Assembly (NCBI GenBank): GCA_029553955.1
Contig: JAKPJZ010000034.1
Coordinates: 30,692-94,691 of the forward strand
Direction of reading: 5' to 3'
Length of the DNA stretch: 64,000 bases
Source: Chloroflexota bacterium
GTDB taxonomy: Bacteria; Chloroflexota; Anaerolineae; SpSt-313
Shown: positions 3,297 to 34,740 of the stretch, piece by piece
Layout of the letters: every line of letters starts with the position of its first letter
Numbering within the stretch: the first letter of the stretch is position 1
The notes under the pieces: model-generated
What the model saw: only the letters and a program-made list of their open reading frames with translations
Told to the model about the DNA's origin: nothing
The model's database searches: none
Made by a program: the position numbers and the translations under genes

Positions 3297-3487
3297 GTTC
3301 GTAGTGCTCGCTTGAGCGCCCTGACCCGGGTCAGGGCCGGGCGCACGAGGGCATGTGTCTGTGCAGGCTTGTCGGCGCCCAAGGGGTGGCAGCGGAGCGG
3401 AGAACCCGGCCAGCACACGGGTGCCCCACAACTGTGGGATATACCCAGCCTGCAGGGTCAAGCGGGCTACGGTTCTGGAAGATTGGG

Positions 3488-3763
3488 ATGAGCGAGGGCA
3501 CGGTGCCAAGCAGCCACATGGACTCGGCGTCTGCCGGCGGGGCGCTGCACGGATTCCCCGTCGCCCTGGCTCGCCGCGGCCTGCAGGCGCCTGCCCTCTT
3601 CCTGCTCGATGTGGCGCAGCCCTTCCGCCTGCTCATCCAGCAGGCGCTCCTGGTGGCGCATCCGCTGCTCTCGCCCTGGGCCGGCGAACGGCTGCTCCAC
3701 TGGGCTGATGCCCTGCAGGATGATGAGGCGCTCGAAGCGGCGAGGCAGGAGCTGGAGTCCTGA
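3488..3763 (+). CDS. Small hypothetical protein (92 aa)
   Basis: Internal ATG of track ORF 3353..3763 (MSEGTVPSS...). Non-repetitive composition. Ends 4 nt before the tandem array. No family recognised. Confidence 0.35.
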   Translation: MSEGTVPSSHMDSASAGGALHGFPVALARRGLQAPALFLLDVAQPFRLLIQQALLVAHPLLSPWAGERLLHWADALQDDEALEAARQELES

Positions 3764-3767
3764 CCGG

Positions 3768-4285
3768 CCCCAACAAGTTGGGGAGTCCGGGTGGGGAACG
3801 CCCCAACAAGCTGGGGAGTCCGGGTGAGGAACGCCCCAACAAGCTGGGGAGCCCGGGTGGGGAACGCCCCAACAGGTTGGGGAGTCCGGGTGAGGAACGC
3901 CCAACAAGTTGGGGAGTCCGGGTGAGGAACGCCCCAACAAGCTGGGGAGTCCGGGTGAGGAACGCCCCAACAAGTTGGGGAGTCCGGGTGAGGAACGCCC
4001 CAACAAGTTGGGGGGTCCGGGTGAGGAACGCCCCAACAAGTTGGGGAGTCCGGGTGGGGAACGCCCCAACAAGTTGGGGAGTCCGGGTGGGGAACGCCCA
4101 ACAAGTTGGGGAGTCCGGGTGGGGAACGCCCCAACAAGCTGGGGAGTCCGGGTGAGGAACGCCCCAACAAGTTGGGGAGTCCGGGTGAGGAACGCCCCAA
4201 CAAGCTGGGGAGTCCGGGTGAGGAACGCCCCAACAAGCTGGGGAGTCCGGGTGAGGAACGCCCCAACAAGTTGGGGAGTCCGGGT
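3768..4285. repeat. Tandem array of 16 units of a 33-nt hairpin-containing repeat (CCCCAACAAGTTGGGGAGTCCGGGTGAGGAACG)
   Basis: Unit starts: 3768, 3801, 3834, 3867, 3900, 3932, 3965, 3998, 4031, 4064, 4097, 4129, 4162, 4195, 4228, 4261. Two units (3900, 4097) are 32 nt. Units abut with no spacers. Each unit holds the palindrome CCCCAAC-AA-GTTGGGG. Confidence 0.95.
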
Positions 4286-4294
4286 TGGAGGCGC

Positions 4295-5086
4295 ATGAAC
4301 GTCGTCTCGCAGTTCTGGGAGGCCACCGACATTTCGGTGGAGGGCGTGTGGGCCCTCGCCGGCCTGGGGCTCTTTGCGCTCCTCTTCATCGCATTGACCC
4401 TGCGCGCCAGGCTCGGTCGCCCCTTCGCCATTCGCCCCCTGGCGGCTGCCGAGTGCATCCGCGCCGCGTTCGCGCGTGCCACCGAGACGGGCGAGGCGAT
4501 GCAGGTGGCGTTGGGCTCCGGCGGCCTGGGCGATCCGAGCACCGCCGATACGCTGGCGGGCCTCTATCTGACCTCGTACCTGGCACGGCGTGCAGCGCTG
4601 GCCGAGGTGCCCGTGCGCGTGCGCGTGGCCGAGGCGACGGCGCTGGCCGGGGCGCTGGCCGCCATGCAGCACAGCGCCGTCTCCACTGGCTATCCCGAGG
4701 CCTTTGACCCCGGCCAGGTGGAGTTTGTGGCGCCGCAGCCGCTGGCCTATGCCGCGGGTGTCGCGGCGGCCATCCACCGCGAGCCGCTGGTGGCCAATGC
4801 CATGGTGGGCCGCTATGGCGCCGAGGTGCTGCTGCCCGGCCAGGCCGGAGTGGCGCAGGGGCTGGTGCAGGTGGGTGGGACGAGCGATCCGACCGCGCTG
4901 CCCCTTTTTGTGGCGACGGTGCAGGCACCGCTCCTCGGTGAGGAGATCTATGCGCTGGGCGCCGCGCTGGGCCGGCATGAGCACACCGGCAGCCTGGCGA
5001 CACAGGACGTGTTCCGCGCCCTGATCGCGTTCGGGATTCTGCTGGCGGCCGTTTTGGGCGTATTGGGGATAAGGCTTGCCGGCTAG
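4295..5086 (+). CDS. Hypothetical membrane protein (N- and C-terminal TM helices)
   Basis: ATG at 4295 (MNVVSQFWEATDISVEGVWALAGLGLFALLFIAL...) inside track ORF 4106..5086. The upstream part of that ORF is only repeat-array translation. Confidence 0.6.
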   Translation: MNVVSQFWEATDISVEGVWALAGLGLFALLFIALTLRARLGRPFAIRPLAAAECIRAAFARATETGEAMQVALGSGGLGDPSTADTLAGLYLTSYLARRAALAEVPVRVRVAEATALAGALAAMQHSAVSTGYPEAFDPGQVEFVAPQPLAYAAGVAAAIHREPLVANAMVGRYGAEVLLPGQAGVAQGLVQVGGTSDPTALPLFVATVQAPLLGEEIYALGAALGRHEHTGSLATQDVFRALIAFGILLAAVLGVLGIRLAG

Positions 5087-5248
5087 TGCTTGACTGCGCA
5101 AGTTCAAAGAGGCGTGCTATCCGGGCCTAGCGCTTCGCACGGGGCCGGAGTGAAACCTTCTGGGGGGGCGCGGAGCAGGGGAGCCGGCTGTTGCCGGGTG
5201 CGATCCTGCCAGGCACGCTTGTCGTATTGAGCGCCAACTACGAACCTG

Positions 5249-5967: not shown

Positions 5968-7380
5968 ATGATTTACTGCTCTGGGTGCGGCACGGCAAAC
6001 CGGGAGGGCAGCCGTTTCTGCAACGAGTGTGGCCAGCGGCTGGTCGCCGAGGCGCCTGTCCCCTGCCCCCGGTGTGGCGCCGCCAACCCGCACGATGCAG
6101 CCCACTGCCAGGCGTGTGGCTTCGACCTGGCGCGCGCCAGAAACGGCATGGCACACGCCCCGACGGCCCATGTGCCGGGGCAGCACGAACCGGCCGAAGG
6201 GGCGCAGCCCGAGGGCGAAGAGCCTGCCACTCGCGACGCCGGGCTGCCACCTTGGCTCGACAGCGTCGAGAGGGCGGCGCTGGGCAGCGCACCCCGCAGG
6301 GCGGCGCTCGACGATCTGGTCGACCTGGAGGCCGAGCGCCTCGAGGCGCTGCCCCGGCCCGGAGGCTGGTCGCCCGAGGCCATCCCCATCGAACCGATCG
6401 TCGGTGTGCCCTATCGCGCCTACGAGCGCGCCCAGTTGCCCGCGACTCCCGAACAAGGCCACGCCGCCGCGCTCTTTGGCCAAGCCGCGGCCGAGGAGGT
6501 CCAGGCAGACCCCCGCGACGTCCCCGAGCCGCGTCGTGCCTCTGGGCTGCGCCCGTGGCCCCGGCGCCTTCTGGCCCTGGCCCTGCTTGCGGCGCTCCTC
6601 GTGCCCACCCTCTGGCCGGGAGGGGTGCTGGGCGCCGCCACCGCCTCGGCCTCGGCTGCAGCAGCCGCGGCGACGATCGATGCGCTGCCGCCGGGCGCGC
6701 CCGTCCTGGTGGCTTTTGAGTACGATGCCGGCATAGCCGGTGACCTGCAGCCGGCGGCCGAGGCCTACCTGCGCCACCTGCTGAACCATGGTGCGCGCCT
6801 CATCCTGGTCAGCACGCAGCCCGAGGGCGCGGCCCTCGCCGGCATGGCGCTCGACCGCGTGCTGCCGGCCTACCCAGAGGCGCGCTCTGGCGAGTCGGTC
6901 GTGCACCTGGGCTATGTGGCCGGCGGCGATGCGGCTGTGCGGGCCTTGACTCTGAGGATTGCCGGGCGTGCCGGTGCCGACTATCGCACCGGCACGCCAC
7001 TCGGCGAGGCGCCTCTGCTGCAGGGCATCGGCGGCGCGCGCCAGTTGCCGCTGATCGTCGTTCTGGGTGGCGACCTCACCCTGCTGCGCCGCTGGATCGA
7101 GCAGGCCGCCGCTCCCTACAGCGTGCCGCTTGTCGCCGGCGTGCCCATGCAGGTTGCCCCGGCGCTCGAGCCGTACTGGACGGCGGGCCAACTGCGCGGC
7201 GTAGTGGCCGGCGTCTCGGGCGCCGCTGCCTACGAACAACTGACATTGAGCCCCGCGCCGGCCGCACGCAGCGTGGCCGCCCTGCGCGTGGGCGTGTGGG
7301 CCGTCGCTGCCGCCGTTGTGCTGGGCAATCTCTGGACGTTCGTCGATTGGATACGCCGGCGGCGATCGCGTGATGCGTGA
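5968..7380 (+). CDS. Double zinc-ribbon protein with membrane-anchored extracytoplasmic domain
   Basis: N-terminus MIYCSGCGTANREGSRFCNECG...CPRCGAANPHDAAHCQACG has two CxxC...CxxC ribbons. An internal TM (LLALALLAALLVPTLW) and a C-terminal TM (VGVWAVAAAVVLGNLW) are present. Confidence 0.7.
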   Translation: MIYCSGCGTANREGSRFCNECGQRLVAEAPVPCPRCGAANPHDAAHCQACGFDLARARNGMAHAPTAHVPGQHEPAEGAQPEGEEPATRDAGLPPWLDSVERAALGSAPRRAALDDLVDLEAERLEALPRPGGWSPEAIPIEPIVGVPYRAYERAQLPATPEQGHAAALFGQAAAEEVQADPRDVPEPRRASGLRPWPRRLLALALLAALLVPTLWPGGVLGAATASASAAAAAATIDALPPGAPVLVAFEYDAGIAGDLQPAAEAYLRHLLNHGARLILVSTQPEGAALAGMALDRVLPAYPEARSGESVVHLGYVAGGDAAVRALTLRIAGRAGADYRTGTPLGEAPLLQGIGGARQLPLIVVLGGDLTLLRRWIEQAAAPYSVPLVAGVPMQVAPALEPYWTAGQLRGVVAGVSGAAAYEQLTLSPAPAARSVAALRVGVWAVAAAVVLGNLWTFVDWIRRRRSRDA

Positions 7381-7473
7381 AACGTGATGCGTAATGCGTA
7401 AGGTCTGTGCTTCCAGCCGTAGTGCTCTGCGCAGACGTGTCACGCATTACGCATCACGTTTCACGCATCACGC
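7368..7473. repeat. Perfect 32-bp inverted repeat built of GCGTRAT-type short units, with a 42-nt loop
   Basis: Left arm 7368-7399 (GCGTGATGCGTGAAACGTGATGCGTAATGCGT) is the exact reverse complement of right arm 7442-7473. The left arm overlaps the last codons and stop of the 5968 CDS. A homologous element lies at 11050-11178. Confidence 0.9.
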
Positions 7474-7491
7474 AGTACGAGGAGGACATAC

Positions 7492-11049: not shown

Positions 11050-11178
11050 AGGACGTAAAACGTAATGCGTAATGCGTGAGGCGTGAGGTGCGCTGTGCAC
11101 TATGAGGAGCTGCGCCGGGCAGACGCTCAGGGCATTACGCATTACGTTCTACGCAGTACGCATCACGCAGTACTGAGG
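11050..11178. repeat. Second copy of the GCGTAAT-unit hairpin element
   Basis: AACGTAATGCGTAATGC (11059-11075) pairs with GCATTACGCATTACGTT (11132-11148). Ends with CGCATCACGCAGTACTGAGG, matching the ...CGCATCACGCAGTACGAGGAGG end of the 7368 element. Confidence 0.8.
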
Positions 11179-14498: not shown

Positions 14499-14544
14499 CG
14501 GGGGGCTCGGAGGCCCGAACTCGTTCGGGCTGGGTTGGGGGGCG

Positions 14545-14568
14545 CCCCAACAAGTTGGGGAGTCCGGG
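14545..14568. repeat. Solo copy of the 33-nt array unit core (CCCCAACAAGTTGGGGAGTCCGGG)
   Basis: Identical to the core of the 3768-4285 units. Preceded by the related hairpin GCCCGAACTCGTTCGGGC. Confidence 0.85.
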
Positions 14569-17511: not shown

Positions 17512-18414
17512 ATGGCCAAGCTGTTTGAATGCGCGCTCAATTTCAGTGAGGGGCGCCGCCCGGAGGCGATAGACGCCATCGTCGCGGCGGCGCGGGGGGT
17601 GGGCGTGCGCGTGCTCGATGTGGCCGCGAATGCCGACCATAACCGCACGGTGCTCAGCTTTGTGGGCCCGGCCGATGCGGTGGATGAGGCGGTCGGCGCG
17701 GTGACCGGCGAGGCGTTGCGGTTGATCGACATGAACCGGCACCAGGGCGCCCATCCGCGCATGGGCGCGGTCGACGTGGTGCCCCTCGTGCCCCTGGGCG
17801 AGGCAACGATGGACGATGCCGTGGCCCTTGCCCGGCGCATCGGCGCGCGCCTGGCGGGCGAGTTCGCGCTGCCCATCTTCCTCTACGAGGCGGCGGCGAC
17901 ACGCCCGGAGCGGCGCAACCTGGCCGATGTGCGCCGCGGCGAGTTCGAAGGGCTGGCGGCGCGGCTGGCCACAGAGGAATGGCGCCCCGACTGCGGCCCG
18001 GTGCGCCCCCACCCGACGGGCGGCGCCACGGCCGTGGGCGCCCGCCGCTTCCTCGTGGCCTACAACGTGAACCTGGGCACCGACGACCTCGAGGTGGCGA
18101 AGCGCATCGCCCACGCCGTACGGGCGCGCGATGGCGGCCTGGCGGCGGTCAAGGCGCTCGGCGTCGCGCTCAGCGAGCGGCGCCAGGTGCAGGTGTCGAT
18201 GAATGTCGTGGACCCCTTCGCCACGCCCCTCTACCGGGCTTTTGAGCTCGTGCGCCTCGAGGCCCAGCGCTATGGGGTGCCGGTCGTCGGCAGCGAGATT
18301 GTGGGCCTCGTGCCCCTGGCGGTGCTGGCCGAGGTTGCCCGCTATTACCTGCGCCTCGAGGGCTTTGCCGATGGCCAGGTGCTCGAGAGCCGGCTGTGGG
18401 GGCCGGAGCCCTGA
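17512..18414 (+). CDS. Glutamate formimidoyltransferase
   Basis: MAKLFECALNFSEGRRPEAIDAI... matches the characteristic E-C-x-x-NFSEGR N-terminus of formiminotransferases. There is no cyclodeaminase domain. Confidence 0.85.
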   Translation: MAKLFECALNFSEGRRPEAIDAIVAAARGVGVRVLDVAANADHNRTVLSFVGPADAVDEAVGAVTGEALRLIDMNRHQGAHPRMGAVDVVPLVPLGEATMDDAVALARRIGARLAGEFALPIFLYEAAATRPERRNLADVRRGEFEGLAARLATEEWRPDCGPVRPHPTGGATAVGARRFLVAYNVNLGTDDLEVAKRIAHAVRARDGGLAAVKALGVALSERRQVQVSMNVVDPFATPLYRAFELVRLEAQRYGVPVVGSEIVGLVPLAVLAEVARYYLRLEGFADGQVLESRLWGPEP

Positions 18415-18441: not shown

Positions 18442-18507
18442 GAGCGGGCGGAGGGGGCAACCTGGCACAGGTCGGAACCTGTGCCAGGTTGCCCCCTCCG
18501 CCCGCTC
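18442..18507. repeat. Perfect palindrome (GAGCGGGCGGAGGGGGCAACCTGGCACAGGT-cgga-complement)
   Basis: Direct reading. Followed at 18508-18535 by a variant array unit, CCCGAACAAGTTCGGGAGTCCGGG. Confidence 0.9.
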
Positions 18508-18646
18508 GGCCCGAACAAGTTCGGGAGTCCGGGGGAGGGTGGCCCGAGCGAGTTTGGGGGGGCCGGGGTACGGTTTGGTGCCTGCAAGCAATTGCTATAC
18601 AATTGTTGCGGGTTTGAAACGTGCAAACGGAGGAAGGAGCGACGAC

Positions 18647-34247: not shown

Positions 34248-34740
34248 GCCAGGCGGGGGCTGGGGGGCGGGGTGCCATGTGCATCGCGCCCCTTCTTTGT
34301 GTGAGGCGGCGGGGTGACCCCCACCGTCCCCCCCTCACGGGGGGATGGGTTGGTTGTGGCCGCGGGCGTGGCGGGGAGACCATTGCTGGTCCTGGAGGAA
34401 CCCATGAGCCAACCCCGTGCCATCCGCGTCTCTGTCTCTTCGACCTTCCGCATGCAAGACAGCCCGGATGCGGCGCTGGCCTGCTATGAGGCGCACTGTT
34501 CGGAGTCCCGAAGTTGTTCGGGTTTGTCGCAGAGGGGCATGCCGTGCGATAGTTGGCCCCACGTCGGGTCCCCAACAAGTTGGGGCTCCGGGAGCGTGGT
34601 GGCATGGCCCCAAGTTGGGGCTCCGGGAGCGTGCACCTGCCGGCCTCTTGTGGCGTCCTCGCGTTCCGGCTATACTACGGGCCACGACGTGGCTGCTGCG
34701 GATGTTCGCGCAGCATTGGGTTCCATCCAGGGGGTAGCCC

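Follow-up and report, generated by a model that had tools for sequence, protein, structure and literature searches.

Among described palindromic repeats of bacteria, those closest to the element considered here are the repetitive extragenic palindromic (REP) sequences of Escherichia coli, which are organized in bacterial interspersed mosaic elements (BIMEs) and accompanied by the transposase TnpA-REP, together forming a REPtron. As portrayed in the accounts cited, E. coli REPs are short, GC-footed palindromes with hundreds of extragenic copies and with Y and Z subtypes (PMC3479197; PMC6006769; PMC2817692), and TnpA-REP binds the folded single-stranded REP together with a 5' guide, cleaves it, and rejoins it (PMC3479197; PMC8266576). 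In Pseudomonas, a single-copy REP-associated tyrosine transposase (RAYT) accompanies REPINs, common inverted REP doublets of a family that was found through the most frequent 16-mers (PMC3116915; PMC3337134). Di Nocera et al. 2013 (PMC3733652) described head-tail (HT) dimers, REPs in tandem, and clusters in which singletons or dimers are reiterated; they consider that REP amplification and clustering may be linked, and they include GTAG repeats in Chloroflexi. RAYTs of Group 4 are reported to be common in Caldilineae (PMC5581495). Here, a 64,000-nt stretch of a Chloroflexota contig (JAKPJZ010000034.1, positions 30,692 to 94,691; hereafter the window) is examined that carries, at 3768..4285 on the + strand, a head-to-tail array of 33-nt hairpin units. 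The array is very likely a local head-to-tail amplification of a REP element belonging to a family that is spread and maintained by a single-copy RAYT encoded on another contig of the same genome.

Tandem Repeats Finder delimits the array at 3767-4285 (period 33, 15.8 copies, 95% matches, score 926), and parsing from position 3768 yields 16 abutting units, each consisting of CCCCAACAAGTTGGGG followed by AGTCCGGGTG(A/G)GGAACG. As a module, the unit comprises a head, G(A/G)GGAACG, the palindrome CCCCAAC-AA-GTTGGGG, and a tail, AGTCCGGG, and agrees with the genome-wide consensus gGGGaaCG-CCCCAACAAGTTGGGG-A(G/C)TCCGGG of what is termed below the C-type subfamily. Units 5 (at 3900) and 11 (at 4097) are only 32 nt long because their CCCC run is short by one C, and unit 16 ends after 25 nt. 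Variation is confined to six positions. The commonest change, GTT to GCT, is found in 6 of the 16 units and converts an A:T pair of the stem to A:C; AAG/AGG, GGGGAG/GGGGGG, and AGTCC/AGCCC variants occur in one unit each, and GTGGGG replaces GTGAGG in 5 of 15 units. With up to two mismatches allowed, the core motif has 29 matches in the window as compared to 0.07 in shuffled sequences, none of which (0 of 100) reached 29. All 13 matches in the genome to the exact array tail, AGTCCGGGTG[AG]GGAACG, lie inside this array, which argues that it was amplified in place. A higher-order period of 197 nt is weakly hinted at by per-unit differences that are lowest at a shift of six units (1.20 versus 1.53-1.91 across shifts 1-7), with the caveat that shifts of 8 and 9 units are as low and involve few pairs. 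Folded as DNA, one unit forms a 6-bp stem with a tetraloop, along with a lower GGA.C/GTCC stem. The original prediction, made from the letters of the window alone, had described a spacer-less array of 16 copies of a structured hairpin repeat, with two 32-nt units, that had amplified locally, and each of these points holds.

Several other identities were considered for the repeat. Tandem, partly palindromic repeats of about 33 nt resemble CRISPR arrays, an identity rejected here, as it had been in the original prediction, since the units abut without spacers and since the unit is also dispersed at 92 sites in both orientations. An intrinsic terminator was rejected as well, since the hairpin lacks a following T-run. 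No Rfam family matched within the array at its gathering score; under permissive settings, two sub-threshold matches to sX13 were returned, scoring 23.2 and 21.8 bits where the cut-off is 50, and were taken as chance.

The window derives from contig C133 of a 5.37-Mb metagenome bin (G000) that comprises 272 contigs and is 91.8% complete and 8.15% contaminated. A census of this bin with the pattern CCC[CG]AACAAGTT[CG]GGG, allowing at most one mismatch, returned 455 copies; they form 92 clusters and are spread over 54 of the 272 contigs. Of these clusters, 21 consist of a single copy and 16 of a pair, the largest array has 23 copies, and 349 of the 455 copies reside in clusters of at least five; the window array is the third-largest cluster and the largest composed of C-type copies only. 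A genome-wide count of the unit had been proposed in the original prediction, which missed both the REP identity of the unit and the cognate transposase. Like the Y and Z REPs of E. coli, as characterized in the sources cited above, the family comprises two subtypes that often alternate in inverted orientation, namely a C-type subfamily (CCCCAAC..GTTGGGG; 164 copies) and a G-type subfamily (CCCGAAC..GTTCGGG; 277 copies), both of which carry a conserved 3' A(G/C)TCCGG tail (T in 93-95% and CC in 94-98% of copies). As for the Pseudomonas REPINs, the family stands out among the top 16-mers, the G-type core being the most frequent 16-mer in the genome (205 copies) and the C-type core the fifth (131 copies). 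At stem pair 4:13, the exact-core census, tandem copies included, yielded G:C in 205, C:G in 131, and other combinations in 10 cases. The pair is thus compensated, and the hairpin itself is therefore conserved; judged by this covariation, the hairpin is under selection. The compensatory stem change that had been singled out at one copy in the window is therefore real, although it marks the commoner of two subfamilies as opposed to a rare variant.

The clusters differ in architecture. Among the 40 clusters with at least five copies, 13 are purely or almost purely direct and 27 are of mixed orientation. In many clusters, inverted C-type copies alternate with G-type copies at regular spacing, and doublets of an inverted C-type copy followed by a G-type copy, 20-46 nt apart, are frequent both in this genome and in other genomes. 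Direct arrays other than that in the window have locus-specific periods of 23/28, 28/30, 27, 36, and 43 nt, the shortest of which (23 nt) equals the hairpin plus its 7-nt tail.

The family is strongly depleted from coding sequence. Genes were called with a crude codon log-odds score of our own, trained on 437 long open reading frames (ORFs) with high GC at third codon positions, from which non-overlapping ORFs were picked; this resulted in 4289 genes that cover 81.8% of the genome. Against this coding fraction, only 18 of the 455 REP cores fall within predicted coding sequence, and 85 of the 92 clusters have no copy there. Moreover, 7 of these 18 cores, including 5 from the window array, are at 5' ends that were probably over-extended by the gene finder. 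A simpler test that asks whether an open frame spans the cluster did not discriminate (such a frame was present at 52 of the 78 clusters that could be tested and at 1215 of 1560 sites chosen at random). That test is uninformative because the genome has a GC content of 68%, and codon scores were therefore used instead. Two clusters lie in the middle of long predicted ORFs, G000:C118:28339-28453 (3 copies) in one of 3051 nt and G000:C197:18212-18347 (5 copies) in one of 2721 nt; these may be in-frame intragenic insertions or gene pairs fused by the gene finder. For the 78 clusters with two neighboring genes (14 at contig edges were left out), 50 are flanked by co-directional, 12 by convergent, and 16 by divergent genes. 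This is near the genome-wide mix of 2278, 389, and 436, respectively, and provides no hint of terminator-like placement. Further, in co-directional spacers, 105 REP copies are in sense and 124 in antisense orientation, and thus the family has no strand bias relative to the flanking genes.

The genome has four matches to Y1 transposases, one of which fits the expectation for a RAYT. This intact gene (C260:563-1171, - strand) encodes a protein of 202 amino acids that scores 90.1 bits against the NCBIfam equivalog NF047646, 'REP-associated tyrosine transposase' (cut-off 80), and 29.3 against Pfam Y1_Tnp (cut-off 23). It aligns with the E. coli TnpA-REP/REP complex (PDB 4ER8; E 1.2e-7) such that H65-Y-H67, Y125, N129, and H133 correspond to H59-M-H61, Y115, N119, and H123 of 4ER8, residues identified by Messing et al. 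(PMC3479197), in the portion of their account used here, as the HUH motif, the catalytic tyrosine, and metal ligands. These residues are invariant in all four orthologues compared. The gene is bracketed by clusters of the same REP family (locus L004, 35-510 and 1337-1533), one of 12 copies and one of 6, and the flanking copies include units identical to those of the window array, GGAACG-CCCCAACAAGTTGGGG-AGTCCGGGT. It is the only RAYT of its type in the genome, the next-best matches being 37%, 26%, and 27% identical. The arrangement is thus like that of the E. coli REPtron as the cited accounts present it, in which one HUH/tyrosine transposase with catalytic residues kept is flanked by its own REPs, and like the Pseudomonas systems in being single-copy. 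Among the TnpA-REP subclasses tabulated by Quentin et al. 2018 (PMC6006769), subclass 2.8 fits best by motifs alone: the motif set NHYH, W-Y, YIHINP and length of 202 amino acids compare with NHYH, W-Y, YIH.NP and about 199 amino acids in that subclass, which differs, as tabulated there, in being described from eight cyanobacterial members, the REPs of which are long and carry the canonical GT[AG]G. A second Y1 gene, at 1270-2080 of locus L001 (G000:C76), is of the IS200 type (NF033573, 74 bits) and has on either side another kind of hairpin repeat, in which GTCTTCGTAGCCCGAGGCTTCCC occurs.

The pairing of repeat and enzyme recurs in other genomes. An exact 21-mer, CCCSAACAAGTTSGGGRSTCC, has 310 copies in G000. 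Of 150 genomes sampled from the class, 10 also contain it, with 3-35 copies each; they all belong to other families (G127, G148, G068, G058, G101, G029, G075, G074, G099, and G115), and both C and G subtypes are represented. A reversed-pattern control had zero matches everywhere. The 21-mer had no match in four other genomes of the family and order. In the five genomes richest in REP matches, where RAYTs were sought, orthologues with 65% (G148) and 63% (G068) identity were found, in two genomes of other families; in both of them, the gene is preceded by G-type copies and followed, within about 60 nt, by a C-type copy. The other three had RAYT matches of only 26-36% identity, with the REP not nearby. 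The same-family genome G001 encodes a RAYT orthologue (55-56% identity) that is flanked by different repeats, and the genome has no match to the pattern. In that genome, the RAYT is situated between compound-repeat arrays with a period of about 185-190 nt (L007, G001:C238, 513-2591), the sequence of which is unrelated to the REP studied here. Thus, REP and RAYT are linked in all three genomes that hold RAYTs of this type with at least 63% identity. Since REPs flank the closest RAYT orthologues found, enzyme and repeat travel together, as has been described for REP/RAYT systems (PMC6006769, in the part considered). The patchy distribution of the REP suggests horizontal spread of the pair or repeated loss.

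Taken as a whole, the family has the attributes by which REPs are recognized, namely a palindromic stem-loop unit of about 20-40 nt (here a 16-nt palindrome in a module of about 32 nt), a high dispersed copy number, an extragenic location, and a cognate, flanked, single-copy RAYT. The window array itself has neither a canonical GTAG or CGTC tag, nor BIME-like alternation, nor the spacers of CRISPR. In the scenario that best accommodates these observations, one C-type REP would have inserted into a short spacer between a small ORF and a DUF6754 membrane-protein gene, through RAYT acting on single-stranded hairpin DNA. The inserted copy could then have multiplied in place by slipped-strand events, by unequal recombination between adjacent units, or by repeated cutting and joining by RAYT. 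Point changes, including the stem-weakening GTT to GCT and the loss of one C, would have followed, and the array may now be slowly decaying. If the guide must be 5' of the hairpin, the active strand would, as a conjecture, be the TT-loop strand, 5'-CCGGA(C/G)T-hairpin. Single changes that keep a G-T wobble pair are found on the TT-loop strand in 24 clusters and on the AA-loop strand in 13, a difference that is suggestive and not significant, copies not being independent.

A number of observations weigh against this interpretation. A conserved GT[AG]G guide at a fixed offset from the hairpin was not found (at the best offset, the tetranucleotide or its complement accompanies 14 of the 166 C-type copies and 11 of the 281 of G-type), and the family therefore falls outside the canonical REP definition as set out in PMC6006769. 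The window array is all direct, unlike the alternating classical BIMEs, and the folding energies of single units are no better than those of shuffles (z of -0.8 to -1.8). The subfamily counts are raised by tandem copying, and hence the covariation does not amount to 336 independent events, and the extragenic statistic depends on a crude gene finder. In addition, G127 has 35 REP matches, yet the best RAYT found there has 34% identity. Finally, activity of the RAYT and mobility of the array are putative, as is any change in its copy number.

Other differences from the systems outlined above concern the form of the repeat. Relative to E. coli REPs and BIMEs in the descriptions cited, the family has no 5' GT[AG]G foot and has instead a conserved flank, A(G/C)TCCGG, 3' of the AA-loop strand; its stem, a 7-bp palindrome, is perfect and has no bulge; and its cluster in the window is all direct and spacer-free, whereas other clusters of the family alternate. 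The host, moreover, is an Anaerolineae-like metagenome bin and not a proteobacterium. Unlike Pseudomonas REPINs as reported, the window array consists of 16 direct singlets and not of doublets, and unlike the superfamilies treated in the cited part of Di Nocera et al. (PMC3733652), the family has neither a GTAG nor a CGTC tag, the C-type head GGAACG reading CGTTCC on the other strand. A REP/RAYT system is a known kind of bacterial repeat and opens no new question by itself. This one is nevertheless a well-populated example from an uncultured Anaerolineae-type sludge bacterium, with an unusual non-GTAG foot and many direct concatemers, and there is a modest chance that it could serve as a second, divergent test case for how RAYTs recognize and amplify non-GTAG REPs.

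Whether the array is correct in its details is a separate matter from whether the REP cluster is genuine, and it is possible, if somewhat doubtful, that the count of 16, the pair of 32-nt units, and the order of variants are products of short-read assembly of a near-identical tandem repeat. REP clusters coincide with contig ends (14 of 92 are within 150 nt of one), indicating that the repeats break assembly, and the bin is both fragmented and contaminated to the extent given above. Against this, both array borders are reproduced without difference by contigs of four public runs from four studies (X1 to X4; three from sludge and one from soil, one of which may be the source sample), with left borders covered at 3413-3796 (X1 and X2), 3468-3796 (X3), and 3413-3821 (X4) and right borders covered from 4259 (X1, X2, and X3) or 4272 (X4). 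Additionally, the variants are scattered along the array and create unique words. No contig from the four runs spans the array from end to end, and depth within it pools every REP copy; the unit count and the 32-nt variants are accordingly given as assembled. When metagenome_contigs was scanned for exact matches to the left and to the right array junction, 0 records were returned.

A second alternative concerns function only and is compatible with a REP origin: about 16 hairpins might be kept as a host-exapted RNA or DNA element with a role in the operon, such as stabilizing the upstream message, stalling ribosomes near the stop codon, uncoupling translation of DUF6754, or binding a nucleoid protein or gyrase as BIMEs do. 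The placement of the array is in keeping with such roles, since it lies between co-directional, syntenic genes. Upstream is a small conserved ORF of no assigned function and no Pfam family (3488..3763, + strand), the start of which is uncertain (3353 in the longest ORF, 3488 by codon score) and the stop codon of which (3761-3763) is followed after 4 nt by the first REP. Downstream, the tail of the last REP abuts GGAGG (4286..4290, + strand), a likely ribosome-binding site as inferred from its sequence and its position 4 nt before ATG 4295 of the DUF6754 membrane-protein gene (4295..5086, + strand; Pfam PF20539, E 2.5e-39, residues 18-258, profile 11-249 of 257). The array as RNA also folds far better than shuffled sequences (z = -6.7), ribosomes can be stalled by E. 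coli REPs that lie close to stop codons according to the cited portion of PMC12306157, and stabilization of mRNA by REPs is likewise recorded in PMC6006769. However, an orthologous locus (L005, in a record titled 'Anaerolineae bacterium') does without the repeat. There, the gene order is kept (FtsX/MacB permease, HEAT-repeat protein, small ORF, DUF6754, membrane protein, and zinc-ribbon protein), with 56% identity over 62 residues for the small ORF and 60% for DUF6754, and the spacer between the latter two is 133 nt of unrelated, REP-free sequence as opposed to 531 nt in the window, 518 of which are REP. A required host function is argued against because the orthologous locus is free of the repeat and because the family has no strand bias relative to transcription; that 6 of the 16 units carry the stem-weakening GCT also speaks against conservation for such a role. 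Exaptation is therefore considered unlikely, and the effect of the array on its host is probably small. By analogy with E. coli REPs, if the genes are co-transcribed, the roughly 16 hairpins that the mRNA would carry between the two cistrons might shield the upstream message or allow the genes to be uncoupled.

The differences in foot, stem, and arrangement described above could alternatively reflect a RAYT lineage with a different recognition, its enzyme resembling the rare subclass 2.8, in which a perfect 7-bp palindrome plus a quasi-palindromic GGA(G/C)TCC foot, and not GT[AG]G, would be recognized and in which the cutting and joining activity of the enzyme would itself build spacer-free concatemers. 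This is regarded as improbable. If it were true, the many arrays whose periods are particular to their locus would document, in nature, the mechanism by which REPs are amplified, and an identical REP core associated with RAYTs that are 63-65% identical would imply either a strict co-constraint of enzyme and substrate or horizontal spread across families of Anaerolineae.

It is very improbable that the array is a plain satellite that grew by slippage, with the proximity of REPs to the RAYT coincidental. Slippage alone can indeed extend tandem arrays, and the activity of this RAYT is putative, but 92 clusters on 54 contigs, 21 of them single copies, call for a transposition-like process, and the linkage of REP and RAYT recurs in each of the three genomes in which the enzyme is at least 63% identical.

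On the + strand, three partial ORFs overlap the array (3778-4155, 3909-4298, and 4106-5086), the last of which is in frame with the downstream gene and encodes PNKLGSPGEER five times. The - strand has two frames that stay open over the entire array (3331-4542 and 3467-5107), as is expected by chance because the genome is 68% GC. The statement in the original prediction that no single frame reads through the array is thus correct for the + strand and incorrect for the - strand, and its description of the last five units as in frame with the downstream ORF stands. Its further suggestion that the array changes the N-terminus of the gene at 4295 is not supported: the alignment with the L005 orthologue begins at the Met of ATG 4295 (residue 64 of the extended ORF), and the Pfam domain begins 18 residues in from that Met. 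The clean in-frame 11-residue repeat that was looked for at the orthologous locus, as support for coding, is absent from the repeat-free spacer and from the N-terminus of the protein there. Judged from this alignment, the gene starts at ATG 4295 and not at the in-array TTG 4106, and the array at this locus is non-coding and fills the intercistronic spacer. A coding repeat, or a phase-variable DUF6754 N-terminus in which slippage alters the number or frame of an 11-residue repeat, is scarcely credible, since the in-frame extension from TTG 4106 over the last five units, to which the codon-score gene finder also stretched the gene, is outweighed by the frame breaks at the two 32-nt units, by the Pfam and L005 alignments, and by the occurrence of the unit in both orientations across 92 mostly intergenic clusters. 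For annotation, these repeats are a source of long ORFs that are spurious, on both strands, and they add to DUF6754 a false N-terminal extension of 63 residues.

Three further sites in the window carry REP copies. These had been taken for solo copies; they are indeed present at 14545, 18510, and 34570, although at each of them a second, degenerate or inverted copy was found. The intergenic doublet at 14514..14568 (both strands) consists of an inverted G-type copy with one mismatch (14514-14529, - strand) and a C-type copy (14545-14560, + strand) with the tail AGTCCGGG. In the intergenic spacer at 18510..18558 (+ strand), a G-type REP, CCCGAACAAGTTCGGG plus AGTCCGGG (18510-18533; core 18510-18525), is followed by a degenerate copy (18543-18558). 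Of the three copies grouped at the intergenic site 34507..34625 (mixed strands), the one at 34507-34522 is G-type, inverted, and has one mismatch; that at 34570-34585 is C-type; and the last, CCCCAAGTTGGGG (approximately 34608-34620), is shortened.

Other repeats are also evident. Directly upstream of the G-type REP at 18510, and after a gene ending at 18414, is a long near-perfect palindrome (18447-18506; GGGCGGAGGGGGCAACCTGGCACAGGT ... ACCTGTGCCAGGTTGCCCCCTCCGCCC) that may be a terminator or a separate repeat family. Between the HEAT-repeat gene and the small ORF, at 3319-3446, is a second dispersed repeat of about 128 nt with 116 blastn matches in the genome, including more than 20 near-full-length copies with 87-96% identity. 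In each of the four public runs, many differing contigs stack on it. Neither an Rfam match nor a significant fold was obtained for it, and it may be an element resembling a miniature inverted-repeat transposable element. The genome is unusually rich in repeats, with the 16-mers GGCCGCCCGCGGGCGG, GTCATTGCGAGGAGGC, TAGCCCCTTGTGGGCG (preceded by GTAG), GGGGAACGGTAGGGGG, and TCCCCCGTCGCGGGGGA each present in 110-136 copies, and several REP-like families probably coexist in it. Tracts of the heptamer ACGCATC occur in the genome as well, for example at 7368-7474 and 11132-11173 of the window.

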